Origin: Eledone cirrhosa
Lineage: Eukaryota
NCBI GenBank assembly: GCA_964016885.1
Contig: OZ024766.1
Coordinates: 16,058,001-16,122,000, forward strand
Length of the DNA: 64,000 bases
Direction of reading: 5' to 3'
The position numbers were made by a program, and so were the translations under genes. The notes beneath the pieces are model-generated. The model was given only the letters and a program-made list of their open reading frames with translations, did no database searches and was not told the origin of the DNA. Shown here one piece after another: positions 18,865 to 61,142 of this stretch (position 1 is the stretch's first letter; each line of letters begins with the position of its first letter).

Positions 18865-20142
18865 ATGGAAAATAAATTGAGTGAAAAGAAGATTAAATGT
18901 GAAACAATGACTAAAGATATGGCTATTACAGAAGAGATGTCAAAGGATAGAGGAGAGAAGCCATATCACTGTGATGTGTGTGGTAAATCATTCTCTCAAA
19001 GTAGTACCTTAACTAGACACAAACGTACACATACGGGAGAGAAGCCATACCACTGTGATATCTGTGGTAAATCATTCTCTCATAGTAGTAATTTAACTAG
19101 CCACATGCGTATACATACAGGTGACGAACCACATCACTGTGATATCTGTGGTAAATCATTCTCTCGAAGTATTATATTAACTAGCCACATGCGTATACAT
19201 ACAGGTGACAAGCCATATCACTGTGATATCTGTGGTAAATCATTCTCTCATAGTAGTAATTTAACTAGCCACATGCGTATACATACAGGTGACAAGCCAT
19301 ATCACTGTGATATCTGTGGTAAATCATTCTCTCGAAGTATTATATTAACTAGCCACATGCGTATACATACAGGTGACAAGCCATATCACTGTGATATCTG
19401 TGGTAAATCATTCTCTGAAAGTGGTCACTTAACTAGCCACAAACGTACACATACAAGAGAGAAGCCATATCACTGTGATATCTGTGGTAAATCATTTTCT
19501 CAGAGTAATGCCTTAACTAGACACAAACGTATACATACAGGAGACACGCCATATCACTGTGATATCTGTGGTAAATCATTCTCTGAAAGTGGTAACTTAA
19601 CTAGCCACAAACGTATACATCCGGGAGACAAGCCGTTTCACTGTGATATCTGTGGTAAATCATTCTCTGATAGTAGTACATTAACTAGACACAAACGTAC
19701 ACATACAGGAGAGAAGCCATATCACTGTGATATCTGTGGTAAATCATTCTCTGAAAGTAGTACCTTAACTAGCCACAAACGTATCCATACAGGTGAGAAG
19801 CCATACCACTGTGATATCTGTGGTAAATCGTTCTCTCAAAGTAGTCACTTAACTAAACACATACGTATCCATACAGGAGACACGCCATATCACTGTGATA
19901 TCTGTGGTAAATCATTCTCTCAAAGTAGTAACTTAACTAGCCACAAACTTATACATACAGGAGACAAGCCATACCACTGTGATATCTGTGGTAAATCATT
20001 CTCTCAAAGTAGTCCCTTAACTCAACACTTACGTATCCATACAGGTGAGAAGCCACATCACTGTGATATCTGTGGTAAATCATTCTCTCAATTAAGTTAT
20101 TTAACTAAACACAAATTTACCCATACAGGTAAGAAACCATAA
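18865..20142 (+). CDS. C2H2 (Kruppel-type) zinc-finger protein, 425 aa, 14 tandem fingers, 33-aa leader, no effector domain
   Basis: Intact ORF with 14 x 28-aa [28 protein letters not shown] units. In-frame TAA at 18820 lies upstream of the ATG. Putative splice acceptor upstream and AATAAA downstream. Confidence 0.93.
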
Positions 20143-20590
20143 CAAAGTCATATCTCATTGTCTCAAAATTGTAAATTAATTAGACACAAATACATTCATA
20201 TGAGTGAGAAGCCATACCACTGTGATTTTGTGGAGAAATTATTCTCTTGTATTGCTACATTAACTACATACAAACATAAATATCTACTGTAGAAAAGCCA
20301 TATCACTGTGATATCTGTGGGAAATTGTTATCTATAAAAGCTAGCTTAACTAGACACAAACATATATATACAGGAGAGAAACTATATCACTGTGATATCT
20401 GTGGGAAATCATTCTCTGAAATAAGTCACTTCACTCAGCACTAACATTTACAGAAAAGGAACCATATCACTGTGATATCTGCAGTAAATCATTCTCTAAA
20501 TGTTGTGACTTCACTAGACACTAACATATACAGGAGATGAACTATATCACTGTGATGTCTGTGGTAAATCATTTTCTAAATGTTCTGGTA
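20143..20590 (+). pseudogene. About 6 degenerate, frameshifted zinc-finger units in the 3' UTR of ZNF gene 1
   Basis: The CCATATCACTGTGATATCTG scaffold recurs (~20212, 20298, 20381, 20461, 20541) with indels and stops. The CDS stop is a TAT>TAA change at the Tyr position of the next finger. Confidence 0.9.
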
Positions 20591-20688
20591 CCAACATAAG
20601 GTTACTTAATGTAACACAGACACAATCAGACAAGATAAAAACCATGTCACTCACCCAAAATAGTGCCACCAATGTTGTTAATGTCTTG

Positions 20689-20694
20689 AATAAA
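20689..20694 (+). terminator. Putative polyadenylation signal of ZNF gene 1
   Basis: AATAAA followed by T/GT-rich sequence; conserved at 61241-61246. Confidence 0.5.
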
Positions 20695-21021
20695 ACTTGT
20701 TTGTTCTGAAATTATTCTCCTTTCATTTTATTTGTAGAAGTTGTAACCAAGACTTGTGCTGACAAATCTATATGGTACAGAATTTACAAACACTGTATAT
20801 ATATATATGTGCCAAAACATCTATGATCTCGGTTTACAGCTGATGAAGGGTTTCTTCTCTCCTTTCATCCATATTACCATCTTAAACTTTGTTTACAGTA
20901 ACCACACAGCTCCTTTCGTTTCTTATAATTTTATATATATATGACAAAGGAAGTGTGGTAAAGAACCAGATGGACCATATACGCACCAGAGTACTCGATA
21001 CTTAGGGTAGTAGAGCGGGTA

Positions 21022-21139
21022 ATAGGAAAATGTTTAACCCCGACGGCAGAGCTCAGTCCGTTTCGACGGCTATTTCTGGAAACAGTCCAGAAATAACCGT
21101 CAAAATGGCTTGAGCTCTGCCGTCGGGGTTAAACATTTT

Positions 21140-21144
<5 letters not shown>
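21022..21144. mobile_element. 123-bp fold-back element (MITE-like), copy 1
   Basis: ATAGGAAAATGTTTAACCCCGACGGCAGAGCTCA...TGAGCTCTGCCGTCGGGGTTAAACATTTTCCTAT, with ~59-bp arms, a 5-nt loop (AACAG) and TA at both ends. Confidence 0.85.
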
Positions 21145-21177
<33 letters not shown>

Positions 21178-21296
21178 AGTGTATATGTCAGTGTGTAGAA
21201 GTTTCTGTCCATGAAAATGATTATCTGTATTTGTGTATATGTGTGTGTGTATATATGTATGTGTATGTTTATATGTGTTCTTATATACATGTGTGC
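21142..21296. repeat. (TA)n followed by degenerate (TG/TA) microsatellite
   Basis: Directly visible in the sequence. Confidence 0.85.
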
Positions 21297-21327
21297 ACAT
21301 CTTGATATATTTTCAGTGTCTGTTCTA

Positions 21328-21412
21328 GTTCTCAGAGTACAAATCCCACTGAGGTAAATTTGCTTCGATATTTTGAGGCCAATAAATGAAATACCAGTGA
21401 AATACTGGGGTG
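21328..21412 (+). mobile_element. Old, degenerate copy of the same SINE family
   Basis: GAGTACAAATCCCACTGAGGTAAATTTGC..GAGGCCAATAAATGAAATACCAGTGAAATACTGGGGT aligns by eye to the SINE GAGTTCAAATCCCGCCGAGGTTAACTTTGC..GGGGTC.ATAAAATAAAGTACCAGT..ACTGGG. Confidence 0.65.
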
Positions 21413-21480
21413 GTTAATTACTCTTCTTTGTCATTGTCTGTTTGTCTACTCTTCTCTTTCTCTGTATTTATATATATATA

Positions 21481-21676
21481 TCCAAAATTAAGATAAATTA
21501 AAATAAAATTAATGTAAATCAAATTATGGGAGTCATGCCAGAAAGACATGTGACATATCACCCGTAAAATAAGCTCCATGGAGCTTATTTTACGGGTGAT
21601 ATGGCGCATGTCTTTCTGGCATGCCACCCATAATTTGATATAGATTAATTTTATTTTAATTTATCTTAATTTTGGA
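21481..21676. mobile_element. 196-bp spacer-less palindrome (MITE-like) inserted in (TA)n, copy 1
   Basis: Two 98-bp arms TCCAAAATTAAGATAAA...TAAGCTCCA|TGGAGCTTA...TTTATCTTAATTTTGGA, centre at 21578/21579, (TA)n on both sides. Confidence 0.9.
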
Positions 21677-22131
21677 TATATATATATATAAATAGGGCCT
21701 CTTAATTGTAGAGCTAACTCTGTTGAAAGAACCTGACTGCTGTTTCTAGTTGTCAATAACCCAATTCACGCCACTGGGACGAAGCTGGTATGATGTGTGT
21801 ATATTTAGTAGATACAGCACGTGTTACTGGTCAGTCGCTGATTTGAACTTGATGCGTAAACACAGATGGTTGGACTTCTTCCTTGTTGAGAATCCAAGAT
21901 CTGGCTACTGTCGTTTACCAATCGATTAATTGGTGAAATATATTTCTTTAATGGAATATATACAAGGAAGATTAATCGTTTTCTAAGGTATCTATTTTTG
22001 AAGTTCTAGTTAAACTTTATTTAGTTACCTACCTAGCTATGTGTGCTTACACACATTTACAAATTATCCCCTGTGATTGTTTCATATGTTTATTTATATG
22101 TCAATCAATTTCTAGTTGATATATATATATA

Positions 22132-25100
22132 TCCATGGCTGTCTTATTTAACTGACTACTCCAGTGACTGCTCCTTCTAGTCTCTTCTTCCAATGTCAGT
22201 TGTCATACAGGTGTCCATGGCTGTCTTATTTAACTAGCTACTCCAGTGACTGCTCCTTCTAGTCCCTTCTTCCAATGTCAGTTGTCATACAGGTGTCCAT
22301 GGCCATATTATTTAACTGGCTACTCCAGTGACTGCTCCTTCTAGTCTCTTCTTCCAATGTCAGTTGTCATACAGGAGTCCATGGCTGTCTTATTTAACTG
22401 ACTACTCCAGTGACTGCTCCTTCTAATCCCTTCTTCCAATGTCAGTTGTCATACAGGTGTGCATGGCTGTCTTATAAAACTAGCTACGCCAGTGACTGCT
22501 CCTTCTAGTCCATTCTTCCAATGTCAGTTGTCATACAGGTGTCCATGTCTGACTTATTTAACTGGCTACTCCAGTGACTGCTCCTTCTAGTCCCTTCTTC
22601 CAATGTCAGTTGTCATACAGGAGTCCATGGCTGTCTTATTTAACTGGCTACTCCAGTGATTGCTCCTTCTAATCCCTTCTTCCAATGTCAGTTGTCATAC
22701 AGGTGTGCATGGCTGTCTTATAAAACTAGCTACTCCAGTGACTGCTCCTTCTAGTCCATTCTTCCAATGTCAGTTGTCATACAGGTGTCCATGGCTGTCT
22801 TATTTAACTGGCTACTCCAGTGACTGCTCCTTCTGGTCCCTTCTTCCAATGTCAGTTGTCATACAGGAGTCCATGGCTGTCTTATTTAACTGGCTACTCC
22901 AGTGATTGCTCTTTCTAGTCTCTTCTTCCAATGTCAGTTGTCATACAGTTGTCCATGGCTGTCTTATTTAACTGGCTACTCCAGTGACTGCCCCTTCTAG
23001 TCTCTTCTTCCAATGTCAGTTGTCATACAGGTGTCCATGGCTGTCTTATTTAACTAGCTACTCCAGTGACTGCTCCTTCTAGTCCCTTCTTCCAATGTCA
23101 GTTGTCATACAGGTGTCCGTGGCCATATTATTTAACTGGCTACTCCAGTGTCTGCTCCTTCTAGTCCCTTCTTCCAATGTCAGTTGTCATACAGGTGTCC
23201 ATGGCTGTCTTATTTAACTAGCTACTCCAGTGACTGCTCCTTCTAGTCTCTTCTTCCAATGTCAGTTGTCATACAGGTGTCCATGACTGTCTTATTTAAC
23301 TGGCTACTCCAGTGACTGCTCCTTCTAGTCCCTTCTTCCAATGTCAGTTGTCATACAGGTGTCCATGGCTGTCTTATTTAACTGTCCACTCCAGTGACAG
23401 CTCCATCTAGTCTCTCTTTCCAATGTCAGTTGTCATACAGGAGTCCATGGCTGTCTTATTTAACTGGCTACTCCAGTGACTGCTCCTTCTAGTCTCTCTT
23501 TCCAATGTCAGTTGTCATACAGGAGTCCATGGCTGTCTTATTTAACTGGCTACTCCAGTGACTGCTCCTTCTCGTCTCTTCTTCCAATGTCAGTTGTCAT
23601 ACAGGTGTCCATGGCTGTCTTATTTAACTGGCTACTCCAGTGACTGCTCCTTCTAGTCTCTTCTGCCAATGTCAGTTGTCATACAGGAGTCCATGGCTGT
23701 CTTATTTAACTGGCCACTCCAGTGACTGCTCCTTCTAGTCTCTCTTTCCAATGTCAGTTGTCATACAGGAGTCCATGGCTGTCTTATTTAACTGACTACT
23801 CCAGTGACTGCCCCTTCTAGTCTCTTCTTCCAATGTCAGTTGTCATACAGGTGTCCATGGCTGTCTTATTTAACTGACTACTCCAGTGACTACCCCTTCT
23901 AGTCCCTTCTTCCAATGTCAGTTGTCATACAGGAGTCCATGGCTGTCTTATTTAACTAGCTACTCCAGTGACTGCTCCTTCTAGTCCCTTCTTCCAATGT
24001 CAATTGTCATACAGGTGTCCATGGCTGTCTTATTTAACTAGCTACTCCAGTGACTGCTCCTTCTAGTCTCTTCTTCCAATGTCAGTTGTCATACAGGTGT
24101 CCATGGCTGTCTTATTTATCTGGCTACTCCAGTGACTGCCCCTTCTAGTCCCTTCTTCCAATGTCAGTTGTCATACAGGTGTCCATGGCTGACTTATTTA
24201 ACTGGCTACTCCAGTGATTTCCCCTTCTAGTCACTTCTTCCAATGTCAGTTGTCATACAGGTGTGCATGGCTGTCTTATAAAACTAGCTACTCCAGTGAC
24301 TGCTCCTTCTAGTCCATTCTTCCAATGTCAGTTGTCATACAGGTGTCCATGGCTGTCTTATTTAACTGGCTACTCCAGTGACTGCTCCTTCTGGTCCCTT
24401 CTTCCAATGTCAGTTGTCATACAGGAGTCCATGGCTGTCTTATTTAACTGGCTACTCCAGTGATTGCTCTTTCTAGTCTCTTCTTCCAATGTCAGTTGTC
24501 ATACAGTTGTCCATGGCTGTCTTATTTAACTGGCTACTCAAGTGACTGCCCCTTCTAGTCTCTTCTTCCAATGTCAGTTGTCATACAGGTGTCCATGGCT
24601 GTCTTATTTAACTAGCTACTCCAGTGACTGCTCCTTCTAGTCCCTTCTTCCAATGTCAGTTGTCATACAGGTGTCCGTGGCCATATTATTTAACTGGCTA
24701 CTCCAGTGTCTGCTCCTTCTAGTCCCTTCTTCCAATGTCAGTTGTCATACAGGTGTCCATGGCTGTCTTATTTAACTAGCTACTCCAGTGACTGCTCCTT
24801 CTAGTCTCTTCTTCCAATGTCAGTTGTCATACAGGTGTCCATGACTGTCTTATTTAACTGGCTACTCCAGTGACTGCTCCTTCTAGTCCCTTCTTCCAAT
24901 GTCAGTTGTCATACAGGTGTCCATGGCTGTCTTATTTAACTGTCCACTCCAGTGACAGCTCCTTCTAGTCTCTCTTTCCAATGTCAGTTGTCATACAGGA
25001 GTCCATGGCTGTCTTATTTAACTGGCTACTCCAGTGACTGCTCCTTCTAGTCTCTCTTTCCAATGTCAGTTGTCATACAGGAGTCCATGGCTGTCTTATT

Positions 25101-28100
25101 TAACTGGCTACTAGAGTGACTGCTCCTTCTAGTCCCTTCTTCCAATGTCAGTTGTCATACAGGAGTCCATGGCTGTCTTATTTAACTGGCTACTCCAGTG
25201 ACTGCTCCTTCTAGTCTCCTCTTCCAATCTCAGTTGTCATACAGAAGTCCATGGCTGTCTTATTTAACTGACTACTCCAGTGACTGCTCCTTCTAGTCTC
25301 TTCTTCCAATGTCAGTTGTCATACAGGAGTCCATGGCTGTCTTATTTAACTGGCTACTCCAGTGACTGCCCCTTCTAATCCCTTCTTCCAATGTCATTTG
25401 TCATACAGGAGTCCATGGCTGTCTTGTATAACTAGCTACTCCAGTGACTACTCCTAGTCTCTTCCAATGTCAGTTGTCATACAGGAGTCCATGGCTGTCT
25501 TATTTAACTGACTACTCCAGTGACTGCCCCTTCTAGTCTCTTCTTCCAATGTCAGTTGTCATACAGGTGTCCATGGCTGTCTTATTTAACTGACTACTCC
25601 AGTGACTACCCCTTCTAGTCCCTTCTTCCAATGTCAGTTGTCATACAGGAGTCCATGGCTGTCTTATTTAACTAGCTACTCCAGTGACTGCTCCTTCTAG
25701 TCCCTTCTTCCAATGTCAATTGTCATACAGGTGTCCATGGCTGTCTTATTTAACTAGCTACTCCAGTGAATGCTCCTTCTAGTCTCTTCTTCCAATGTCA
25801 GTTGTCATACAGGTGTCCATGGCTGTCTTATTTATCTGGCTACTCCAGTGACTGCCCCTTCTAGTCCCTTCTTCCAATGTCAGGTGTCCATGGCTGACTT
25901 ATTTAACTGGCTACTCCAGTGATTTCCCCTTCTAGTCACTTCTTCCAATGTCAGTTGTCATACACGAGTCCATGACTGTCTTATTTAACTGGCTACTCCA
26001 GTGACTGCTCCTTCTAGTCTCTTTATCCAACGTCAGTTGTCATACAGGAGTCCATGGCTGTCTTATTTAACTGGCTGCTCCATTGACTGCTCCTTCTAGT
26101 CCCTTCTTCCAATGTCAGTTGTCATACAGGTGTCCATGGCTGTCTTATTTAATTGGCTACTCCAGTGACTGCTCCTTTTAATCCCTTCTTCCAATGTCAG
26201 TTCTCATACAGGTGTCAATGGCTGTTTTTTAACTGGCTACTCCAGTGACTGCTCCTTCTAGTCCCTTCTTCCAATGTCAGTTGTCATACAGGTGTCCAAA
26301 GCTGTCTTATTTAACTGGCTACTCCAGTGACTGCCCCTTCTAGTCCCTTCTTCCAATGTCAGTTGTCATACAGGTGTCCATGGCTGTCTTATTTAACTAG
26401 CTACTCCAGTGACTGCTCCTTCTAGTCCCTTCTTCCAATGTCAGTTGTCATACAGGTGTCCATGGCCATATTATTTAACTGGCTACTCCAGTGTCTTCTC
26501 CTTCTAGTCTCTTCTTCCAATGTCAGTTGTCATACAGGTGTCCATGGCTGTCTTACATAACTGGCTACTCCAGTGACTGCCCCTTCTAGTCCCTTCTTCC
26601 AATGTCAGTTGTCATACAGGTGTCCATGGCCATATTATTTAACTGGCTACTCCAGTGTCTTCTCCTTCTAGTCTCTTCTTCCAATGTCAGTTGTCATACA
26701 GGTGTCCATGGCTGTCTTATATAACTGGCTACTCCAGTGACTGCCCCTTCTAGTCCCTTCTTCCAATGTCAGTTGTCATACAGGTGTCCATGGCTGTCTT
26801 ATTTAACTGGCTACTCCAGTGACTGCTCCTTCTAGTCTCTTCTTCCAATGTCTGTTGTCATACAGGTGTCCATGGCTGTCTTATTTAACTAGCTACTCCA
26901 GTGACTGCTCCTTCTAGTCTCTTCTTCCAATGTCAGTTGTCATACAGGAGTCCATGGCTGTCTTATTTAACTGGCTACTCTAGTGACAGCTCCTTCTAAT
27001 CCCTTCTTCCAATGTCAGTTGTCATACAGGTGTGCATGGCTGTCTTATAAAACTAGCTACTCCAGTGATTGCTCCTTATAGTCCCTTCATCCAATGTCAG
27101 TTGTCATACAGGAGTCCATGGCTGTCTTATTTAACTGGCTACTCCAGTGACTGCTCCTTCTAGTCTCCTCTTCCAATCTCAGTTGTCATACAGAAGTCCA
27201 TGGCTGTCTTATTTAACTGACTACTCCAGTGACTGCTCCTTCTAGTCTCTTCTTCCAATGTCAGTTGTCATACAGTTGTCCATGGCTGTCTTATTTAACT
27301 AGCTACTCCAGTGACTACTCCTAGTCTCTTCCAATGTCAGTTGTCATACAGGAGTCCATGGCTGTCTTATTTAACTGACTACTCCAGTGACTGCCCCTTC
27401 TAGTCCCTTCTTCCAATGTCAGTTGTCATACAGGAGTCCATGGCTGTCTTATTTAACTAGCTACTCCAGTGACTGCTCCTTCTAGTCCCTTCTTCCAATG
27501 TCAATTGTCATACAGGTGTCCATGGCTGTCTTATTTAACTAGCTACTCCAGTGACTGCTCCTTCTAGTCTCTTCTTCCAATGTCAGTTGTCATACAGGTG
27601 TCCATGGCTGTCTTATTTATCTGGCTACTCCAGTGACTGCCCCTTCTAGTCCCTTCTTCCAATGTCAGTTGTCATACAGGTGTCCATGGCTGACTTATTT
27701 AACTGGCTACTCCAGTGATTTCCCCTTCTAGTCCCTTCTTCCAATGTCAATTGTCATACAGGTGTCCATGGCTGTCTTATTTAACTAGCTACTCCAGTGA
27801 CTGCTCCTTCTAGTCTCTTTATCCAACGTCAGTTGTCATACAGGAGTCCATGGCTGTCTTATTTAACTGGCTGCTCCATTGACTGCTCCTTCTAGTCCCT
27901 TCTTCCAATGTCAGTTGTCATACAGGTGTCCATGGCTGTCTTATTTAATTGGCTACTCCAGTGACTGCTCCTTCTAATCCCTTCTTCCAATGTCAGTTCT
28001 CATACAGGTGTCAATGGCTGTTATTTAACTGGCTACTCCAGTGACTGCTCCTTCTAGTCCCTTCTTCCAATGTCAGTTGTCATACAGGTGTCCAAAGCTC

Positions 28101-31100
28101 TCTTATTTAACTGGCTACTCCAGTGACTGCCCCTTCTAGTCCCTTCTTCCAATGTCAGTTGTCATACAGGTGTCCATGGCTGTCTTATTTAACTGGCTAC
28201 TCCAGTGACTGCCCCTTCTAGTCCCTTCTTCCAATGTCAGTTGTCATACAGGAGTCCATGGCTGTCTTATTTAACTGGCTACTCCAGTGACTGCCCCTTC
28301 TAGTCCCTTCTTCCAATGTCAGTTGTCATACAGGAGTCCATGGCTGTCTTATTTAACTGGCTACTCCAGTGACTGCTCCTTCTAGTCTCTTCTTCCAAAA
28401 TCAGTTGTCATACAGGTGTCCATGGCTGTCTTATTTAACTGGCTACTCCAGTGACTGCTCCTTCTCGTCTCTCTTTCCAATATCAGTTGTCTTACAGGTG
28501 TCCATGGCTGTCTTATTTAACTGGCTACTCCAGTGACTGCTCCTGCTAGTCTCTTCTTCCAATGTCAGCTGACATACAGGTGTCCATGGCTGTCTTATTT
28601 AACTGGCTACTCCAGTGACTGCTCCCTCTAGTCCCTTCTTCCAATGTCAGTTGTCATACAGGAGTCCAAGACTGTCTTATTTAACTGGCTACTCCAGTGA
28701 CTGCTCCTTCTAGTCCATTCTTCCAATGTCAGTTGTCATACAGGTGTCCATTGCTGTCTTGTTTAACTGGCTACTCCAGTGACTGCTCCTTCTAGTCCCT
28801 TCTTCCAATGTCAGTTGTCATACAGGTGTCCATGGCTGTCTTGTTTAACTGGCTACTCCAGTGACTGCTCCTTCTAGTCCCTACTTCCAATGTCAGTTGT
28901 CATACAGGTGTCCATGGCTGTCTTGTTTAACTGGCTACTCCATTGACTGCTCCTTCTAGTCCCTTCTTCCAATGTCAGTTGTCATACAGGAGTCCAAGAC
29001 TGTCTTATTTAACTGGCTACTCCAGTGACTGCTCCTTCTAGTCCCTTCTTCCAATGTCAGTTGTCATACAGGTGTCCATGGCTGTCTTGTTTAACTGGAT
29101 ACTCCAGTGACTGCTCCTTCTAGTCTCTTCTTCTAATGTCAGTTGTCATACAGGTGTCCATGGCTGTCTTATTTAACTGGCTACTCCAAGACTGCTCCTT
29201 CTAGTCTCTTCTTCCAATGTCAGTTGTCATACAGGTGTCCATGGCTGTCTTATTTAACTGGCTACTCCAGTGACTGCTCCTTCTAGTCCCTTCTTCCAAT
29301 GTCAGTTGTCATACAGGTGTCCATGGCTGTCTTATTTAACTGGCTACTCCAAGACTGCTCCTTCTAGTCTCTTCTTCCAATGTCAGTTGTCATACAGGTG
29401 TCCATGGCTGTCTTATTTAACTGGCTACTCCAGTGACTGCTCCTTCTAGTCCCTTCTTCCAATGTCAGTTGTCATACAGGTGTCCATGGCTGTCTTGTTT
29501 AACTGGATACTCCAGTGACTGTTCCTTCTAGTCTCTTCTTCCAATGTCAGTTGTCATACAGGAGTCCATGGCTGTCTTATTTAACTGGCTACTCCAGTGA
29601 CTGCTCCTTCTAGTCTCTTCTTCCAATGTCAGTTGTCATACAGGTGTCCATGGCTGACTTATTTAACTGGCTACTCCAGTGACTGCTCCTTCTAATCTCT
29701 TCTTCCAATGTCAGTTGTCATACAGGAGTCCATGGCTGTCTTATTTAACTGACTACTCCAGTGACTGCTCCTTCTAGTCCCTTCTTCCAATGTCAGTTGT
29801 CATACAGGTGTCCATGGCTGTCTTGTTTAACTGGCTACTCCAGTGACTGCTCCTTCTAGTCCCTTCTTCCAATGTCAGTTGTCATACAGGTGTCCATGGC
29901 TGTCTTATTTAACTGGCTACTCCAGTGACTGCCCCTTCTAGTCCCTTCTTCCAATGTCAGTTGTCATACAGGTGTCCATGGCTGACTTATTTAACTGGCT
30001 ACTCCAGTGATTTCCCCCTCTAGTCTCTTCTTCCAATGTCAGTTGTCATACAGGAGTCCATGACTGTCTTATTTAAGTGGCTACTCCAGTGACTGCTCCT
30101 TCTAGTCTCTTCATCCAACGTCAGTTGTCATACAGGAGTCCATGGCTGTCTTATTTAACTGGCTGCTCCATTGACTGCTCCTTCTAGTCCCTTCTTCCAA
30201 TGTCAGTTGTCATACAGGTGTCAATGGCTGTTATTTAACTGGCTACTCCAGTGACTGCTCCTTCTAGTCCCTTCTTCCAATGTCAGTTGTCATACAGCTG
30301 TCCAAAGCTGTCTTATTTAACTGGCTACTCCAGTGACTGCCCCTTCTAGTACCTTCTTCCAATGTCAGTTGTCATACAGGAGTCCATGGCTGTCTTATTT
30401 AACTGGCTACTCCAGTGACTGCCCCTTCTAGTCCCTTCTTCCAATGTCAGTTGTCATACAGGAGTCCATGGCTGTCTTATTTAACTGGCTACTCCAGTGA
30501 CTGCCCCTTCTAGTCTCTTCTTCCAATGTCAGTTGTCATACAGGTGTCCATGGTTGTCTTATTTAACTGACTACTCCAGTGACTGCCCCTTCTAGTCCCT
30601 TCTTCCAATGTCAGTTGTCATACAGGAGTCCATGGCTGTCTTATTTAACTAGCTACTCCAGTGACTGCTCCTTCTCGTCCCTTCTTCCAATGTCAATTGT
30701 CATACAGGTGTCCATGGCTGTCTTATTTAACTAGCTACTCCAGTGACTGCTCCTTCTAGTCTCTTCTTCCAATGTCAGTTGTCATACAGGTGTCCATGGC
30801 TGTCTTATTTATCTGGCTACTCCAGTGACTGCCCCTTCTAGTCCCTTCTTCCAATGTCAGTTGTCATACAGGTGTCCATGGCTGACTTATTTAACTGGCT
30901 ACTCCAGTGATTTCCCCTTCTAGTCACTTCTTCCAATGTCAGTTGTCATACAGGAGTCCATGACTGTCTTATTTAACTGGCTGCTCCATTGACTGCTCCT
31001 TCTAGTCCCTTCTTCCAATGTCAGTTGTCATACAGGTGTCCATGGCTGTCTTATTTAATTGGCTACTCCAGTGACTGCTCCTTCTAATCCCTTCTTCCAA

Positions 31101-49100: not shown

Positions 49101-52100
49101 TGACTGCTCCTTCTAGTCCCTTCTTCCAATGTTAGTTGTCATACAGGTGTCCATGACTGTCTTATTTAGCTGGCTACTCCAGTGACTGCTGCTTCTAGTC
49201 TCTTCTTCCAATGTCAGTTGTCATACAGGTGTCCATGGCTGTCTTATTTAACTGGCTACTCCAGTGACTGCTCCTTCTAGTCTCTTCTTCCAATGTCAGT
49301 TATCATACAGGTGTCCATGGCTGACTTATTTAACTGGCTACTCCAGTGATTGCCCCTTCTAGTCTCTTCTTCCAATGTCAGTTGTCATACAGGTGTCCAT
49401 GGCTGTCTTATTTAACTGGCTACTCAAGTGACTGCTCCTTCTAGTCCATTCTTCCAATGTCAGTTGTCATACAGGAGTCCATGGCTGTCTTATTTAACTG
49501 GCTACTCAAGTGACTGCTCCTTCTAGTCCATTCTTCCAATGTCAGTTGTCATACAGGAGTCCATGGTTGTCTTATTTAACTGGCTACTCAAGTGACTGCT
49601 CCTTCTAGTCCATTCTTCCAATGTCAGTTGTCATACAGGAGTCCATGGCTGTCTTATTTAACTGGCTACTCCAGTGACTGCTCCTTTTAGTCCCTTCTTC
49701 CAACGTCAGTTGTCATACAGGTGTCCATGGCTGTCTTATTTAACTGGCTACTCCAGTGACTACTCCTTCTAGTCTCTTCTTCCAATGTCAGTTGTCATAC
49801 AGGTATCCATGGCTGTCTTATTTAACTGGCTAGCCAGTGACTGCTCCTTCTAGTCCCTTCTTCAAATGTCAGTTGTCATACAGGTGTCCATGGCTGACTT
49901 ATTTAACTGGCTACTCCAGTGACTGCTCATTCTAGTCCCTTCTTCCAATGTCAGTTGTCATACAGGTGTCCATGGCTGTCTTATTTAACTGGCTACTCCA
50001 GTGACTGCTCCTTCTAGTCCCTTCTTCCAATGTCAGTTGTCATACAGGTGTCCATGGCTGTCTTATTTAACTGGCCACTCCAGTGACTGCTCCTTCTAGT
50101 CCCTTCTTCCAATGTCAGTTGTCATACAGGTGTCCATGGCTGTCTTATTTAACTAGCTACTCCAGTGACTGCTCCTTCTACTCTCTTCTTCCAATGTCAG
50201 TTGTCATACAGGTGTCCATGACTGTCTTATTTAACTGGATACTCCAGTGATTGCCCCATCTTGTCTCTTCTTCCAATGTCAGCTGACATACAGGTGTCCA
50301 TGGCTGTCTTATTTAACTGGCTACTCCAGTGACTGCTCCCTCTAATCCCTTCTTCCAATGTCAGTTGTCATACAGGTGTCCATGACTGTCTTATTTAACT
50401 GGCTACTCCAGTGACTGCTCCTTCTAGTCCATTCTTCTAATGTCAGTTGTCATACAGGTGTCCATAGCTGTCTTATTTAACTGGCTACTCCAGTGACTGC
50501 TCCTTCTAGTCCCTTCTTCCAATGTCAGTTGTCATACAGGTGTCCATGGCTGTCTTATTTAACTGGCTACTCCAGTGACTGCTCCTTCTAGTCCATTCTT
50601 CTAATGTCAGTTGTCATACAGGTGTCCATAGCTGTCTTATTTAACTGGCTACTCCAGTGACTGCTCCTTCTAGTCCCTTCTTCCAATGTCAGTTGTCATA
50701 CAGGAGTCCATGGCTGTCTTATTTAACTGGCTACTCAAGTGACTGCTCCTTTTAGTCCCTTCTTCCAATGTCAGTTGTCATACAGGTGTCCATAGCTGTC
50801 TTATTTAACTGGCTACTCCAGTGACTACCCCTTCTAGTCCATTCTTCCAATGTCAGTTGTCATACAGGAGTCCAAGACTGTCTTATTTAACTGGCTACTC
50901 CAGTGACTGCTCCTTCTAGTCCATTCTTCCAATGTCAGTTGTCATACAGGTGTCCAAAGCTGTCTTATTTAACTGGCCTACTCCAGTGACTGCTCCTTCT
51001 AGTCCCTTCTTCCAATGTTAGTTGTCATACAGGAGTCCATGGCCGTCTTATTTAACTGGCTACTTCAGTGACTGCTCCTTCTAGTCCCTTCTTCCAATGT
51101 TAGTTGTCATACAGGAGTCCATGGCTGTCTTATTTAACTGGCTACTCCAGTGACTGCTCCTTCTAGTCTCTTCTTCCAATGTCAGTTGTCATACAGGTGT
51201 CCATGGCTGACTTATTTAACTGGCTACTCCAGTGATTGCCCCTTCTAGTCTCTTCTTCCAATGTCAGTTGTCATACAGGTGTCCATGGCTGTCTTATTTA
51301 ACTGGCTACTCCAGTGACTGCTCCTTCTAGTCCATTCTTCCAATGTCAGTTGTCATACAGGAGTCCATGGTTGTCTTATTTAACTGGCTACTCAAGTGAC
51401 TGCTCCTTCTAGTCCATTCTTCCAAAGTCAGTTGTCATACAGGTGTCCATGGCTGTCTTATTTAACTGGCTACTCCAGTGACTGCTCCTTCTAGTCTCTT
51501 CTTCCAATGTCAGTTGTCATACAGGTGTCCATGGCTGTCTTATTTAACTGGCTACTCCAGTGACTGCTCCTTCTAGTCCCTTCTTCAAATGTCAGTTGTC
51601 ATACAGGTGTCCATGGCTGACTTATTTAACTGGCTACTCTAGTGACTGCTCCTTCTAGTCCCTTCTTCCAATGTCAGTTGTCATACAGGAGTCCATGGCT
51701 GTCTTATTTAACTGGCTACTCCAGTGACTGCTCCTTTTAGTCCCTTCTTCCAATGTCAGTTGTCATACAGGTGTCCATGGCTGTCTTATTTAACTGGCTA
51801 CTCCAGTGACTACTCCTTCTAGTCTCTTCTTCCAATGTCAGTTGTCATACAGGTGTCCATGGCTGTCTTATTTAACTGGCTAGCCAGTGACTGCTCCTTC
51901 TAGTCCCTTCTTCAAATGTCAGTTGTCATACAGGTGTCCATGGCTGACTTATTTAACTGGCTACTCCAGTGACTGCTCATTCTAGTCCCTTCTTCCAATG
52001 TCAGTTGTCATACAGGTGTCCATGGCTGTCTTATTTAACTGGCTACTCCAGTGACTGCTCCTTCTAGTCCCTTCTTCCAATGTCAGTTGTCATACAGGTG

Positions 52101-55100
52101 TCCATGGCTGTCTTATTTAACTGGCCACTCCAGTGACTGCTCCTTCTAGTCCCTTCTTCCAATGTCAGTTGTCATACAGGTGTCCATGGCTGTCTTATTT
52201 AACTAGCTACTCCAGTGACTGCTCCTTCTACTCTCTTCTTCCAATGTCAGTTGTCATACAGGTGTCCATGACTGTCTTATTTAACTGGATACTCCAGTGA
52301 TTGCCCCATCTTGTCTCTTCTTCCAATGTCAGCTGACATACAGGTGTCCATGGCTGTCTTATTTAACTGGCTACTCCAGTGACTGCTCCCTCTAATCCCT
52401 TCTTCCAATGTCAGTTGTCATACAGGTGTCCATGACTGTCTTATTTAACTGGCTACTCCAGTGACTGCTCCTTCTAGTCCATTCTTCTAATGTCAGTTGT
52501 CATACAGGTGTCCATAGCTGTCTTATTTAACTGGCTACTCCAGTGACTGCTCCTTCTAGTCCCTTCTTCCAATGTCAGTTGTCATACAGGTGTCCATGGC
52601 TGTCTTATTTAACTGGCTACTCCAGTGACTGCTCCTTCTAGTCCATTCTTCTAATGTCAGTTGTCATACAGGTGTCCATAGCTGTCTTATTTAACTGGCT
52701 ACTCCAGTGACTGCTCCTTCTAGTCCCTTCTTCCAATGTCAGTTGTCATACAGGAGTCCATGGCTGTCTTATTTAACTGGCTACTCAAGTGACTGCTCCT
52801 TTTAGTCCCTTCTTCCAATGTCAGTTGTCATACAGGTGTCCATGGCTGACTTATTTAACTGGCTACTCCAGTGACTGCTCCTTCTAGTCCATTCTTCCAA
52901 TGTCAGTTGTCATACAGGAGTCCAAGACTGTCTTATTTAACTGGCTACTCCAGTGACTGCTCCTTCTAGTCCATTCTTCCAATGTCAGTTGTCATACAGG
53001 TGTCCATGGCTGTCTTATTTAACTGGCTACTCCAGTGACTGCTCCTTCTAGTCTCTTCTTCCAATATCAGTTGTCATACTGGAGTCCATGGCTGTCTTAT
53101 TTAACTGGCCTACTCCAGTGACTGCTCCTTCTAGTCCCTTCTTCCAATGTTAGTTGTCATACAGGAGTCCATGGCCGTCTTATTTAACTGGCTACTTCAG
53201 TGACTGCTCCTTCTAGTCCCTTCTTCCAATGTTAGTTGTCATACAGGAGTCCATGGCTGTCTTATTTAACTGGCTACTCCAGTGACTGCTCCTTCTAGTC
53301 TCTTCTTCCAATGTCAGTTGTCATACAGGTGTCCATGGCTGTCTTATTTAACTGGCTACTCCAGTGACTGCTCCTTCTAGTCTCTTCTTCCAATGTCAGT
53401 TATCATACAGGTGTCCATGGCTGACTTATTTAACTGGCTACTCCAGTGATTGCCCCTTCTAGTCTCTTCTTCCAATGTCAGTTGTCATACAGGTGTCCAT
53501 GGCTGTCTTATTTAACTGGCTACTCAAGTGACTGCTCCTTCTAGTCCATTCTTCCAATGTCAGTTGTCATACAGGAGTCCATGGTTGTCTTATTTAACTG
53601 GCTACTCAAGTGACTGCTCCTTCTAGTCCATTCTTCCAAAGTCAGTTGTCATACAGGAGTCCATGGCTGTCTTATTTAACTGGCTACTCCAGTGACTGCT
53701 CCTTTTAGTCCCTTCTTCCAATGTCAGTTGTCATACAGGTGTCCATGGCTGTCTTATTTAACTGGCTACTCCAGTGACTGCTCCTTCTAGTCTCTTCTTC
53801 CAATGTCAGTTGTCATACAGGTGTCCATGGCTGTCTTATTTAACTGGCTACTCCAGTGACTGCTCCTTCTAGTCCCTTCTTCAAATGTCAGTTGTCATAC
53901 AGGTGTCCATGGCTGACTTATTTAACTGGCTACTCTAGTGACTGCTCCTTCTAGTCCCTTCTTCCAATGTCAGTTGTCATACAGGTGTCCATGGCTGTCT
54001 TATTTAACTGGCTACTCCAGTGACTGCTCCTTCTAGTCCCTTCTTCCAATGTCAGTTGTCATACAGGTGTCCATGGCTGTCTTATTTAACTGGCTACTCC
54101 AGTGACTGCTCCTTCTAGTCCCTTCTTCCAATGTCAGTTGTCATACAGGTGTCCATGGCTGTCTTATTTAACTGGCTACTCCAGTGACTGCTCCTTCTAG
54201 TCCCTTCTTCCAATGTCAGTTGTCATACAGGTGTCCATGGCTGTCTTATTTAACTGGCTACTCCAGTGACTGCTCCTTCTAGTCTCTTCTTCCAATGTCA
54301 GTTGTCATACAGGTGTCCATGGCTGACTTATTTAACTGGCTACTCCAGTGATTGCCCCTTCTAGTCTCTTCTTCCAATGTCAGTTATCATACAGGAGTCC
54401 ATGGCTGTCTTATTTAACTGGCTACTCCAGTGACTGCTCCTTTTAGTCCCTTCTTCCAATGTCAGTTGTCATACAGGTGTCCATGGCTGTCTTATTTAAG
54501 TGGCTACTCCAGTGACTGCTCCTTCTAGTCTCTTCTTCCAATGTCAGTTGTCATACAGGTGTCCATGGCTGTCTTGTTTAATTGGCTACTCCAGTGACTG
54601 CTCCTTTTAGTCCCTTCTTCCAATGTCAGTTGTCATACAGGTGTCCATGGCTGTCTTATTTAACTGGCTACTCCAGTGACTGCTCCTTCTAATCTCTTCT
54701 TCCAATGTCAGTTGTCATACAGGTGTCCATGGCTGTCTTATTTAACTGGCTACTCCAGTGACTGCTCCTTCTAGTCTCTTCTTCCAATGTCAGTTGTCAT
54801 ACAGGTGTCCATGGCTGACTTATTTAACTGGCTACTCCAGTGACTGCTCCTTCTAGTCCGTTCTTCCAATGTCAGTTGTCATACAGGTGTCCATGGCCAT
54901 CTTATTTAACTGGCTACTACAGTGACTACTCCTTCTAGTCCCTTCTTCCAATGTCAGTTGTCATACAGGATTCCATGGCTGTCTTATTTAACTGGCTACT
55001 CCAGTGACTGCTCCTTCTCGTCTCTTCTTCCAATGTCAGTTGTCATACAGGTGTCCATGGCTGTCTTATTTAACTGGCTACTCCAGTGACTGCTCCTTCT

Positions 55101-55304
55101 AGTCTCTTCTTCCAATGTCAGTTGTCATACAGGTGTCCATGGCTGTCTTATTTAACTGGCTGTTCCAGTGACTGCTCCCTCTAGTCCCTTCTTCGAATGT
55201 CAGTTGTCATACAGGAGTCCATGGCTGTCTTATTTTACTGGCTACTCCAGTGACTGCCCTTCTTGTCTCTTCTTCCAATGTCAATTGCCATGCAGGAGTT
55301 GATG
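22132..55304. repeat. 82-bp tandem satellite, array 2 (~404 monomers, 33 kb)
   Basis: Same monomer and orientation as array 1. It begins abruptly after (AT)n at 22119-22132 and grades into Helitron sequence at ~55280-55304. Confidence 0.99.
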
Positions 55305-55697
55305 TTCTTTAAATGCTTCTTGGTATGTTCTGCACTCTCCCACGAAATCACCTGAGATCCTCAAATGTCGTTGGTCCTTGAACAATAAGCAGAAGTGGCT
55401 GTAAATAAAAACTCTCTCTGTTGTTGGGGTGGTCATTGTAAACATGCCCAATAGCATCACTTGCCTTGACTTCATCACCTTCCAGTAAATGACCCTGCTT
55501 CCTTTGATTCCAAGTCTTACAATTGGTCCAGGTGTAGTATTTTGGGATGTCAGCATATAGGAGGGATCGAACAAATTCTTTATTCTGGCAGAGTTTCAAA
55601 AAAGCAGTTAGAGTAGTGTCAGGTGGTGCTGGTGTCAACTGATGAGCTGTGGTTTCAGTGAAGTACACACTCTGTCCATTTTCTATATGTATAGAGA
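55284..55697 (-). mobile_element. Helitron RepHel fragment, copy 2
   Basis: ORF 55348..55713(-) ...LLYADIPKYYTW...FYLQPLLLIVQGPTTFEDLR, continued after a frameshift by GECRTYQEAFKEHQLLHGN (cf. Helitron TYxEACxxxGLLxDD). Confidence 0.9.
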
Positions 55698-55713
55698 TAA
55701 GGATGAAAAGCAA

Positions 55714-55980
55714 AGTTAATCCCTCAGAGGTTAGCTTTGCCTTTCATCCCTACGGGGTCGATAAAATAAAGTACCAGTAATGTACTGGGGTATTGCTGGC
55801 CTTGTGCCTAATGTAGAAACAATTATTACGCGGTTGATAAAATATAGTACCAGTAATACACTAGGGTAATTGCTGGCCTTGTGCCAAAAGTAGAAACAAT
55901 TATTACGGGATCGATAAAATAAAGTACCAGTAATTCACTGATTTATTTACTGGCCTTGTGCCAAAAGTAGAAACAATTAT
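55714..55980 (+). mobile_element. Truncated SINE with its 3' 76-77 bp in 3 tandem units
   Basis: Units start at 55752, 55828 and 55905. Confidence 0.8.
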
Positions 55981-56732
55981 CACCTTTCTTTTTAATAAAT
56001 CACATCACTATAGAATTAAATACGATTGGAAACGTGTCTGAAGGTACTAAATTATATCAGGGACTTTTCACGTTTGACACCGGCACGAGACTCGAAACAT
56101 TCGCTAAGACACCTAGTACCTGCTGTCTTCGTTATAACTTTAATTAATCTAATTATATCTTGTGTAACAATTATATATATATATACACACACACACAATT
56201 TTAATTCCCCGACATCAGTCTTACACTGTCATATCTATTCTTACTTTACAATTGTGTCTACTAAGAGTTCCATTACAATCTGTAGTAGTAAAACTACTAT
56301 TTCACCAGAACATCTGCTATCAGTCATTTATAGACAATATATATATTTTAGACCACATATCAACCTAATATATATATATTTCCTATCAAATCTGTAGCTA
56401 AAGACATAAAGTCAGCCTCACTACTTCATTCTAACAAGATATCAATTTATGACTAAAGATGAAGAAGATACACCAACGTTAATGTCGTGAAATAAAGCTG
56501 ATAACATTGAAACTTCTAATTTGATAACAAAGAGATTATTTCTTTGGTTGTTTACTAACAACTAACAAAACAATACATTGATTATATGTGAAGGAGGTAA
56601 GTTGACAAAGATTTACTTAATGTCTATATTAATGTGTGTAAATAATATAATTATTTTAACCCTACAACGACCAGTAATTAACCAGATTCCACTGTTACAT
56701 GTGATATAAAATATATTGTTATCATGACTGTC

Positions 56733-57297
56733 TTTATTATTTAAATTACCTTCGTCTATTTAATTATCTTGTTCACTACCTTACATTATAAAATATAGTT
56801 TATATTTAGCTGTACCTTGTTGCTTTAAGTAAATTAAAGATATATTTATTATTTAAATTACCTCCGTCTATTTAATTATCTTGTTCACTACCTTACATTA
56901 TAAAATATAGTTTATATTTAGCTGTACCTTGTTATTGCTTTAAGTAAATTAAAGATATCTTTATTATTTAAATTACCTCCGTCTATTTACTTATCTTGTT
57001 CACTACCTTACATTATAAAATATAGTTTATATTTAGCTGTACCTTGTCATTGCTTTAAGTAAATTAAAGATATATTTATTATTTAAATTACCTCCGTCTA
57101 TTTAATTATCTTGTTCACTACCGTACATTATAAAATATAGTTTATATTTAGCTGTACCTTGTCATTGCTTTAAGTAAGTTAAAGATATATTTATTATTTA
57201 AATTACCTCCGTCTATTTAATTATGTGGTTCACAACCTTACGTTATAAAATATATTTTATATTTAGCTGTACCTTGTTATTGCTTTACGTAAATTAA
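56733..57297. repeat. 115-bp minisatellite, 5 units
   Basis: Marker at 56749, 56861, 56976, 57091, 57206. Confidence 0.97.
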
Positions 57298-57615
57298 TAT
57301 TTTGTCTATTTTAGTCTAAACCTCTTACAATTTAATTAACTTCATCTACTTGTGGTTGAACATTACTTTATTGTGGGTTTCATTTCATTATAATTATGTT
57401 TGAGTTAGCCAGCCAAGTAGGGGTTGAGTATCTGTATTTCAGGGCACTGCTTTGATGGTGAAGGGACATCTGTTGGTGTGGGATCTCGGTGGCTGTACAT
57501 AATAAGGTTCTAATACTCTAAAGAGCTAGCTGAATAACCGTCTGATACATGTCTTGTATAGAGGATCATAAAGCCATGTATAGAAGAGCAGTCAGCAATG
57601 TCAGGATTAACATTC

Positions 57616-57812
57616 ATAGTGAAGTGGCAGTATCGGTAGGGAGTCGGACACCATGCTTTGAGGCACAGAGTTACGTCCCTTTATGATCTGAGTTCAAATC
57701 CCGCCGAGGTTAACTTTGCCTTACATCCATGCGGGGTCTATAAAATAAAGTACCAGTAATGTACTGGGTAATTGCTGGCCTTATGTTTAAAATAGAAACA
57801 ATTATAGTGAAG
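57616..57812 (+). mobile_element. tRNA-derived SINE, copy 2
   Basis: B-box GAGTTCAAATCCC and the same core as 17366-17553; flanking direct repeat ATAGTGAAG at 57616-57624 and 57804-57812. Confidence 0.85.
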
Positions 57813-58112
57813 AATTTGGAGTGTAGTCTGGTGTCCACCAGGGCTCTGTTCTTAGCCCTCACGTAGTTATTATCGTCCTGCAGCCTATACAGAGATGTTT
57901 AAGACTGGCTGCCCATGGGAGCTCCTGTGTGCACAGCAGGTCCTGAAGAATGCGATCATATGCATTTTCAAGGTCTATAAAACGATAATATATACCTCTT
58001 AGCAATACTCCCACGATTTCTCAAAGACCTGCCACATAGTGAATAATTGGTGGGTTATGTTGCGCCCAGGGAGAAAACAGCACTATCCATCAGCTAGCTT
58101 GCACTCGATACA

Positions 58113-58457
58113 TCACTTTGCCAGAAACTTAGCATATACTTTACCAGGGAGGCTTAACAAGGTGATCCCTCTATTTTTGGAACAATCTCTCGTGTCTCCC
58201 TTTTTATAAATTGGGATTATTACTCCCGAGTGCCATTTCAGAGACCCAGGCCATCTGACACACATGAGTCGGTCACATTTGAGCTCTTTAATTGCTCTTG
58301 TGACCTCAGCCTCCGAGAGATTAGTCACCGCTATCAGATTCACCTCATGTACATCCGAAGATGCTGTTGTGATCGGGTTTGGGAGATCAGCAAAGTATTC
58401 TCTCCACCTCATGAGGATCCATCTCTCTGAAGAGAAAAGAACCCCAGATACACTCAT
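58113..58457 (-). mobile_element. RTE-clade LINE fragment, copy 2
   Basis: Translation RWREYFADL..IIPIYKKGDTRDCSKNRGITLLSLPGKVYAKFL. Confidence 0.9.
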
Positions 58458-59007
58458 GGTTGCAGGTGCGGAGGAAGATTTCTTGTAACTAATTAAAAAT
58501 TAAAATAATTTGATTTTTCAATAAAAAGTTTCTAGGGTTTATAGATGTAAAATTTCCACTGTTAAATCTATCTCTGCTTCTTAAGTATTCTCTATTCTCT
58601 ATTATCTCTGTTTCTTTTTCATTTCAGAATATCAGATGACATTGGGATAAATTATTATTTTCAATCTTGGATACATCACCTCTATTTATCATCATTTGAA
58701 GATTAAAACTTTTTAAACAGAACTTATATAACACTGTTTATATAAATCTATCAGAATTACTGTGATATATTTCCTCAGAATTGAGTTTAAAGACAAAATT
58801 CCTTTTCTTCACAGTGTGGTATATATATGGGAGATATATTTTGTATTTTAACTCAGCTTCAATGACAAAGAAGTTTGCATCATCTTCAGGTATTAACTGA
58901 AATCCTAATTGAGGGAAATATAACAGAAGTAATATTTTTTAGGAATATAATATAAAAAATATTAAAGAATAACATCTGTAAATTCTGCCAAGGGAAGAAG
59001 AATTATT

Positions 59008-60537
59008 ATGGAAAATATATTGAGTGAAAAGAAGATTAAATGTGAAACAATGTCTAAAGATATGGCTATTACAGAAGAGATGTCAAAGGATAGAGGAGAG
59101 AAGCCATATCACTGTGATGTCTGTGGTAAATCATTCTCTGTTAGGAGTAAATTAACTAGTCACAAACGTACCCATACAGGAGAGAAGCCGTATAACTGTG
59201 ATATCTGTGGTAAATCATTCTCTGAAAGTGGTACCTTAACTATACACAAACGTATACATACAGTAGAGAAGTCATATCACTGTGATATCTGTGGTAAATC
59301 ATTCTTTGTTAATGGTAATTTAACGAGACACAAACGTACACATACAGGAGAGAAGCCATACCACTGTGATATCTGTGGTAAATCATTCTCTCGAAGTAGT
59401 CACTTAACTGCCCACAAACGGACACATACAGGTGAGAAGCCATATCGCTGTTTTATCTGTGGTAAATCATTCTCTCTAAGTAGTATATTAACTTTTCACG
59501 TACGTACCCATACAGGTGACAAACCATATCACTGTGATATCTGTGGTAAATCATTCTCTCGAAATAATATATTAACTTGTCACATACGTACCCATACAGG
59601 AGACAAGCCATATCACTGTGATATCTGTGGTAAATCATTCTCTCGAAGTAGTAAATTAACTAACCACATGCATATACATATAGGTGAGAAACCATATCGC
59701 TGTGATATTTGTGGTAAATCATTCTCTCGAAATAATACATTAACTTGTCACATACGTACCCATACAGGAGACAAGCCATATCACTGTGATATCTGTGGTA
59801 AATCATTCTCTCTAAGTAGTATATTAACTTTTCATGTATGTACCCATACAGGTGACAAACCATATCACTGTGATATCTGTGGTAGATCATTCTCTCGAAA
59901 TAATATATTAACTTGTCACATACGTACCCATACAGGAGACAAGCCGTATCACTGTGATATCTGTGGTAAATCATTCTCTCAAAGTGGTCACTTAACTAGC
60001 CACAAACGTACCCATACAGTAGAGAAACCATATCGCTGTGATATCTGTGGTAAATCATTCTTTGTTAATAGTAAATTAACTAGACACAAACGTGTACATA
60101 CAGTAGACAAGCCATATCACTATGATATCTGTGGTAAATCATTCTCTGATAGTGGTAGCTTAACTAGCCACAAACGTATACATATAAGAGAGAAGCCATA
60201 TCACTGTGATATCTGTGGTAAATCATTCTCTCAAAGTCCTGGCTTAACTAGGCACAAACGTATACATACAGGAGACAAGCCATATCACTGTGATATCTGT
60301 GGTAAATCATTCTCTGAAAGTGGTAACTTAACTAGCCACAAACGTATACATACAGGAGAGAAGCCATATCACTGTGATATCTGTGGTAAATCATTCTCTG
60401 AAAGTGGTAACTTAACTAGCCACAAACGTATACATACAGGTGAGAAGCCACATCACTGTGATATCTGTGGTAAATCATTCTCTCAATTAAGTAGTTTAAC
60501 TAAACACAAATATACCCATACAGGTAAGAAACCATAA
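59008..60537 (+). CDS. C2H2 zinc-finger protein, 509 aa, 17 tandem finger units (unit 13 has Cys>Tyr), 33-aa leader, no effector domain
   Basis: Intact ORF and paralogue of 18865..20142, with near-identical leader and last finger. Confidence 0.93.

Positions 60538-61142
<605 letters not shown>

Follow-up and report, generated by a model that had tools for sequence, protein, structure and literature searches.

How does a family of DNA-binding proteins come to have almost wholly different recognition helices in genes whose surroundings are nearly the same? The question is raised by two genes for C2H2 zinc finger (ZNF) proteins within a 64,000-nucleotide stretch of the Eledone cirrhosa genome (3.0 Gb), here called the window (C27:16058001-16122000, C27 being its contig). 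In the non-repetitive non-coding flanks, the two genes disagree upstream at 83 of 2774 sites (3.0%) and downstream at 56 of 1401 (4.0%), which is slightly closer than the ~95% likeness judged by eye in a preliminary description of the window. ESGNLTS is the sole helix common to both, as that description had said. The genes are two of 95 near-identical units in a 1.1-Mb array (C27:15757388-16842822). We consider it probable that the 84-bp fingers of this 95-gene tandem array behave as one shared coding minisatellite, with out-of-register recombination inside copies and from one copy to another as the most likely cause of its reshuffling, that selection is likely to favor new contact residues, and that the products would be sequence-specific repressors of repeats.

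The two genes and the cluster they belong to

An 82-bp satellite fills about three-quarters of the window and is broken by two islands (15009-22131 and 55300-63382). Each island carries one long single-exon frame, in which a 32-residue leader is followed by 14 or 17 C2H2 finger units. Both open reading frames (ORFs) lie where they had been placed, with the helix lists as given earlier: gene 1 runs from the ATG at 18865 to the TAA at 20142 with 14 fingers, and gene 2 from the ATG at 59008 to the TAA at 60537 with 17 finger units, the thirteenth of which (DSGSLTS, 60112-60195) is without its first Cys. The features of the window, in window positions, are as follows.

1-15008, + strand: 82-bp satellite tract upstream of unit 1, with a start before the window and a full length of 25.5 kb
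15009-22131, + strand: repeat unit 1 (g29), with mobile-element debris, a candidate non-coding 5' exon and intron, the ZNF exon, dead fingers, and the 3' flank
16231-18367, + strand: candidate intron of unit 1 (GT at 16231, AG ending at 18367), predicted from sequence only
18865-18960, + strand: gene 1 leader, 32 residues ending in ...RGEK, marker of a genome-wide subfamily
18961-20142, + strand: gene 1 array, 14 C2H2 fingers of 84 bp with 12 distinct helices and 86% inter-finger identity
20143-20586, + strand: degenerate non-coding fingers past the gene 1 stop, an internal neutral control
22132-55299, + strand: 82-bp satellite tract between the units, 33.2 kb
55300-63382, + strand: repeat unit 2 (g30), mosaic in that the nearest relatives in the cluster are different for its far 5' flank, its array, and its 3' flank
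59008-59103, + strand: gene 2 leader
59104-60537, + strand: gene 2 array, 17 finger units with 14 distinct helices
60538-61138, + strand: degenerate non-coding fingers of unit 2, longer than those of unit 1
63383-63946, + strand: short 82-bp satellite tract, the next unit beginning at 63947

The leaders of the two genes are nearly identical, as reported, with 31 rather than 30 of 33 residues the same and 2 of 93 nt different. When each finger was compared with its best-matching partner in the other gene, 26-28% of the bases in the contact codons differed, against 2-3% in the 36-nt Cys scaffold and 10-11% in the post-helix and linker part. The scaffold 36-mer is exact in 6 of the 14 fingers of gene 1 and 6 of the 17 of gene 2 (mean mismatch, 0.8-1.0). 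Its supposed near-invariance at synonymous sites holds for the Cys region (synonymous diversity, piS, 0.045) and fails for the linker (piS 0.28). Genes 1 and 2 are a typical pair, one helix in common being the median among 1005 pairs of distinct units, and the helix array of gene 1 recurs in two further units of the cluster.

The units were enumerated by tiling 1.26 Mb around the window. They are compact (7-8 kb) and form two converging arms, 52 units on the + strand and then 43 on the - strand, with the switch at C27 ~16.39-16.40 Mb. All 76 exact copies of a leader 38-mer in the genome lie on C27 at 15.76-16.82 Mb. Satellite is carried by nearly every unit; its 95 tracts are oriented as their genes, range from 137 bp to 38 kb, and total 272 kb. 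It is private to the cluster, which holds 1164 of the 1164 exact genome copies of a satellite 34-mer. Among the longest are three tracts of 25.5, 33.2, and 38.0 kb, situated inside or close to the window and close to the strand switch. A decayed finger was rejected as the origin of the 82-bp satellite after comparison with 500 shuffles (p 0.74 and 0.28). Albertin and co-workers are said to have noted in 2015 that tandem repeats of 70-90 bp are enriched near octopus C2H2 genes.

The 95 frames hold 1450 fingers, 197 helices, and 61 different finger arrays, and collapsing leaves 34 array families and 52 flank haplotype combinations. Nineteen of the families occur only on the + arm, 12 only on the - arm, and 3 on both, and repeated multi-gene blocks are visible in the order of families along the cluster. 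Inter-finger identity is 0.83-0.87 in 48 representatives. Most ORFs (76 of 95) are complete to the usual end and 19 stop early; loss of a zinc ligand is of six kinds and affects 14 of 1416 units. Nine frames (g03, g07, g17, g42, g60, g62, g69, g71, and g79) end at corresponding points: the first Cys codon has lost 2 nt, which puts a stop in frame. This shared loss may be recurrent or may have been spread by conversion. The dead 3' region comprises 4-10 finger-like units across the 85 of 95 genes in which both anchors were found. The dead fingers, earlier described as aligning closely, differ in length from unit to unit. In the candidate intron, the donor and acceptor motifs are present with at most one mismatch in 87 and 95 of the 95 units, respectively; contigs of four sequencing runs span the intron and the satellite, with no splice joint among the matches listed, and the depth of these contigs is no measure of copy number.

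Whole-finger turnover from a shared pool

The preliminary description held that coding fingers evolve faster than the adjacent junk DNA. This was examined in sibling pairs, defined on a minimum spanning tree of genes within 1.2% of each other upstream and 1.4% downstream (43 pairs). Sibling flanks differ at 532 of 166,148 sites (0.32%) and in-register fingers at 179 of 53,508 (0.33%), and 567 of 637 aligned sibling fingers are identical. In 44 pairs that share an array (pairs that are not independent of one another), synonymous difference (pS) is 0.0096 in the arrays against 0.020-0.023 in the flanks. The claim of faster point change was therefore not sustained. The same 43 sibling pairs, however, have undergone 20 finger gain or loss events, with 48 fingers in all. 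Turnover is at the level of units, as whole or half fingers are gained, lost, or spliced, and not by faster point change. As near-flank distance rises from <0.5% to 2%, collinear finger sharing falls from 0.93 to 0.18, and it is flat beyond (bins of at most 120 sampled pairs, complete genes only). The dead non-coding fingers vary in number as well, so that the instability needs no reading frame.

The fingers are drawn from a pool private to the cluster. Among the 775 fingers of 52 representatives, 578 have a match within 2 nt in a gene whose two flanks are each 2% or more distant, and for 251 the copy in such a gene is exact, in agreement with the cluster-wide pool proposed earlier. ESGNLTS is followed by 16 and preceded by 14 different neighbors, and common helices generally sit beside many different fingers. 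A Val marker of the first finger is kept in 45 of 52 first fingers, among which 19 helices occur. The scaffold 36-mer has 1713 exact copies genome-wide, 492 of them in the cluster. A genome-wide finger pool was ruled out, the scaffold being genome-wide and the helices mostly cluster-private; other loci of the leader family, ~12-18% away in intron and leader, have few helices in common with the cluster.

Recombination between fingers, which had also been postulated, is supported by patterns inside the 84-bp unit. Linkage decays within the finger (rho -0.28, permutation p 0.0003). Of 56 isolated fingers, which have no close single relative, 20 can be traced to two parents as mosaics; the corresponding number in 30 column-permuted nulls has a mean of 4.9 and a maximum of 10. 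The junctions are not confined to the Cys scaffold, in which they had earlier been supposed to be anchored: 15 of the 20 inferred breakpoints, taken at the leftmost best position, fall within the helix, although informative sites are densest in the helix and bias the location toward it.

The flanks are recombinant patchworks too. The nearest relative changes with each 450-bp piece of g29 and g30, four-gamete incompatibility climbs from 0.29 to 0.68 with distance, and 16 pairs are near-identical on one flank and 2-5% apart on the other. Gene 2 is a mosaic in its own right: over 17 fingers its array departs from the g08 array by 10 nt, while its flanks are 2.8% and 3.1% away. Because the flanks are patchworks, the 3% flank difference cannot date the gene 1/gene 2 pair.

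Patchwork flanks are also what would be seen if long-diverged arrays had been kept apart in old paralogues and conversion had evened out the flanks between them, in which case the fast turnover would be illusory. Several findings favor such homogenization, a possibility already raised in the preliminary description. Once sibling pairs are set aside, the distance upstream does not correlate with that downstream (rho 0.03); in array-sharing pairs, flank likeness tapers off within 3-4 kb, and the same-family to different-family flank ratio, 0.34 at the leader, reaches 0.8-1.0 by 3-4 kb; finger piS (0.16-0.19) is far above flank distance, and the pool is therefore older than the coalescence of the flanks. 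As the sole cause, it is nevertheless unlikely. Finger insertions, deletions, and replacements separate copies only 0.3% apart, 75% of the fingers are near-identical to a copy in a distant gene of different context, mosaic fingers exist, and divergence from the sister clusters (~14%) sets a bound on the cluster as a whole. Flank homogenization acts alongside shuffling, not in its place.

Two other clusters of the genome served for comparison. The C3 cluster (C3:147618001-147738000) has nine ZNF genes, whose flanks are 4.8% and 3.4% apart and whose inter-finger identity is 76%. It keeps its finger order although its flank distance is larger: the in-register share of fingers is 0.56, whereas in the present cluster it is 0.185 (300 of 1005 pairs), or 0.114 after shuffling of the finger order. 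The sister cluster on C27 at 19.94-20.07 Mb (19936001-20076000), with thirteen genes, the same leader, and 84-91% inter-finger identity, is scrambled at 1.5-5% flank distance and has a finger pool of its own. Two scrambled clusters and one ordered cluster suggest a link between shuffling and finger similarity. Several units of the C3 cluster contain a 41-bp repeat, and most units of the sister cluster have their own 20-bp repeat. Further leader-bearing genes are found at C27 19.43-19.66 and 21.87-21.90 Mb and on C4, C8, C10, C12, C18, C25, C26, C28, and C289.

Probable selection at the DNA-contact positions

A codon model with a single synonymous rate was applied to 220 of the 475 distinct canonical fingers. 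The dN/dS ratio (omega) was 2.5 at the contact positions (-1, 3.7; +3, 3.0; +6, 2.1; +2, 1.6) and 0.72 at the others, and these four rank highest by omega among the 28 positions. The zero values at Cys and His are an artefact of the filter, whereas the value for Phe (0.09) is not filter-derived. Because conversion violates the tree assumption of codon models (PMC5519329, accessible text), neutral simulations with conversion were run; the 10 simulations gave omega values of 0.46-1.03, so the diversifying selection suggested for -1, +2, +3, and +6 is supported. A one-step mutation network yielded omega values of 1.5-3.2. In the dead fingers the excess at the helix is slight (pi 0.044 versus 0.036), as compared with 0.34 versus 0.066 in the first coding finger. 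Purifying selection on the fold and the frame is clear; only 2 independent nonsense codons were found, against roughly 17 expected from flank variation by our own estimate.

Much of the variety could in principle come from neutral runaway, with satellite-driven amplification of mostly redundant genes and helices diversified by unstable repeats under relaxed constraint. The varying number of dead fingers, the near neutrality of recent mutations, the 19 early-ending ORFs, and the high omega at non-contact positions all fit such a process. We nevertheless judge it improbable, since omega exceeds 1 specifically at -1, +2, +3, and +6 and lies above all 10 neutral simulations, the deficit of nonsense codons is large, and the adjoining +4 and +5 codons are conserved, which indicates that the helix is not a mutation hotspot.

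Mis-joined haplotypes or collapsed repeats, giving false copies and chimeric arrays, are a highly improbable explanation: large blocks do recur at 99.5-100% flank identity in both arms and a 200-N gap is present 50 kb away, but collapsing still leaves 52 flank haplotype combinations with 34 array families, four copies lie within 1-4 differences per 4.1 kb, too many for two haplotypes alone, and satellite lengths differ between copies. At most, near-identical blocks inflate the unit count, perhaps up to twofold.

Several observations weigh against reshuffling of a shared pool under selection for new contacts. All counts come from a single assembly, and some of the units may be silent. Identical tracts between distant units have a median of 69 nt in the arrays against 122-144 nt in the flanks, so large multi-finger transplants are rare; the longest identical tracts link members of one array family. 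Some of the sharing could be inheritance from a small number of ancestral arrays and not the result of ongoing exchange. As to selection, the likelihood-ratio p-values are unreliable under conversion, the test statistic reaching 47 in the neutral simulations, and pairwise piN/piS within the contact codons alone is 1.1. The newest sibling mutations look nearly neutral, with 10 nonsynonymous and 3 synonymous changes at contact sites, 21 and 9 at other sites, and 5 and 0 at structural sites, some repeats being included in the counts. The order-keeping C3 cluster also has a contact excess (pN/pS 1.8), so that such selection is not special to this locus.

Proposed mechanism and relation to known systems

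Here, we propose how the array may change. The unit structure, the 61 arrays built from 197 helices, the finger gains and losses between siblings, and the mosaic fingers and flanks are the observed basis. With ~85% identity between fingers, unequal crossover or conversion could misalign by whole fingers, and such misalignment would delete, duplicate, or import fingers and splice half-helices. The same exchange between units of ~97% identity would hold the flanks near 3% and uncouple them from the arrays. Judging from dN/dS, purifying selection would keep the fold and the frame, and -1, +2, +3, and +6 would be driven to change. By analogy with KRAB-ZFP and FiNZ clusters, the products would repress young transposons or satellites.

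A tentative extension concerns the whole octopus ZNF subfamily. Each cluster might be a combinatorial library of the germ line, in which paralogues draw whole or half fingers from a private pool and gain new specificities by recombination much faster than by point mutation, selected against young transposons and satellites; an inter-finger identity of ~85% might then be the switch between shuffling and order-keeping. We would hold this to be somewhat less probable than its converse. How ZNF families gain specificities fast enough to track transposons is posed as an open question in the accessible text of PMC10547256. The present locus makes it possible to tell the mutational engine from selection within one genome and offers dead fingers as a neutral control, siblings as a clock, a scrambled sister cluster, and an order-keeping contrast cluster. 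It also carries two warnings: flank identity is no clock for the paralogues of such arrays, and whole-protein gene trees of cephalopod C2H2 genes mix histories. If the proposal is true, the animal could make new DNA-binding repressors quickly.

Homology searches placed the proteins among generic ZNFs, mostly of vertebrates, at full length. The first 45 residues gave nine matches, of which the widest in coverage (91%, 44% identity) was an Octopus sinensis ZNF239-like protein with the same scaffold, which would fit an octopus origin. The leader had no match in Pfam, and its profile search against 1.84 billion representatives returned one chance match to an unrelated plant repeat protein and no credible relative; by exact look-up, neither gene's protein is present in the protein collection. 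PRDM9 combines a PR/SET methyltransferase domain with KRAB and SSXRD domains and directs meiotic hotspots. For PR/SET, the genome has 14 PF21549 matches, none of them on C27; the ORF gave no match among its 25 best-scoring families of 57, and neither did the 30 upstream frames scanned on the plus strand, out of 33. Pfam detected no KRAB domain in the leader or in the scanned upstream frames, a scan that covers exons of at least 28 codons. SSXRD gave no match in the genome, and the same search gave none in 14 control genomes either.

The comparisons that follow refer to the accessible text of the papers cited. In PRDM9, the 84-bp fingers lie in a single exon and are altered by duplication, deletion, and conversion, with amino-acid change concentrated at -1, +2, +3, and +6 (PMC3890296, PMC5519329, 10.64898/2026.09.07.749791). 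The present array resembles it as a recombining 84-bp finger minisatellite, and its contact omega of 2.5 points in the same direction. It differs in that 95 paralogues, not alleles of one gene, exchange fingers, and that the fingers are less alike (85%). PoD, which reflects how far diversity is concentrated at the contacts, has a median of 0.42, low in the range of 0.33-1.0 for full-length vertebrate PRDM9; it is 0.27-0.46 in 19 other arrays of the genome. The designation PRDM9-like in the preliminary description fits the mode of array change, but not family membership, which was ruled out in the absence of PR/SET from C27, nor, going by PoD, the degree of concentration at the contacts.

The closest functional analogues are the young KRAB-ZFP and FiNZ clusters (PMC12575710, PMC10547256). 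The mouse Chr4 KRAB-zinc finger cluster is likewise a young tandem cluster with multi-gene segmental duplication, and has 38-47 fingerprint arrays per strain as compared with the 61 helix arrays found here (PMC12575710). The present cluster differs in being without KRAB, the domain that recruits TRIM28, in its 7-8 kb units, and in its private satellite between units. Finger-level exchange between paralogues is not described for the mouse cluster in the main text of that paper, where "gene conversion" and "shuffl" occur 0 times. The zebrafish FiNZ-ZNFs share with the present genes a lineage-specific poly-ZNF family, a short N-terminal leader, and positive selection at base contacts, and octopus ZNFs are predicted to bind transposons (PMC10547256). 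Unlike the FiNZ domain, which is on its own exon, the leader here is contiguous with the fingers and without a known relative. Array scrambling is not analyzed in the accessible text of that FiNZ and metazoan ZNF work, in which "gene conversion" occurs 0 times.

Octopus genomes have very many clustered C2H2 genes (PMC12513265, PMC9068888, PMC6279123, PMC12988792), and the present cluster agrees with the octopus type in its tandem clusters, its poly-C2H2 coding region in one exon, and a scaffold as in the Octopus sinensis protein. Genes of the octopus type are also expressed in embryo and nervous tissue. In their accessible text, these papers treat counts, trees, and expression rather than finger-level recombination; "recombination" occurs 0 times in that of PMC12513265. 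Clustered C2H2 expansion in octopus, contact-site selection, and segmental duplication are thus already known. No account of finger exchange among the paralogues of a cephalopod cluster was found in the literature covered, which left out most subscription journals.

Some minor features of the units may be added. In the leader, I-K-C-E (hydrophobic-K-C-E, window 18889-18900) recurs in all 95 leaders of the cluster and in the majority of the sister leaders listed, conservation that inside the cluster is not above chance; we take the motif to match the SUMO acceptor consensus, and it is a possible lead to a repression mechanism only. At the satellite junction, a 131-codon open frame lies on the - strand (15061-15456 and 55348-55743). 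We regard it as Helitron-like; it had no match in Pfam, its sole resemblance being a weak, low-recognition one to DNase II. A reverse-transcriptase match at 17569-17742 (+) is weak (E 0.021, below the cut-off) and is likely debris of a long interspersed element in the candidate intron. The candidate intron also contains a 115-bp tandem repeat, with 5.9 copies at 16365-17047 and 4.9 copies at 56733-57297.

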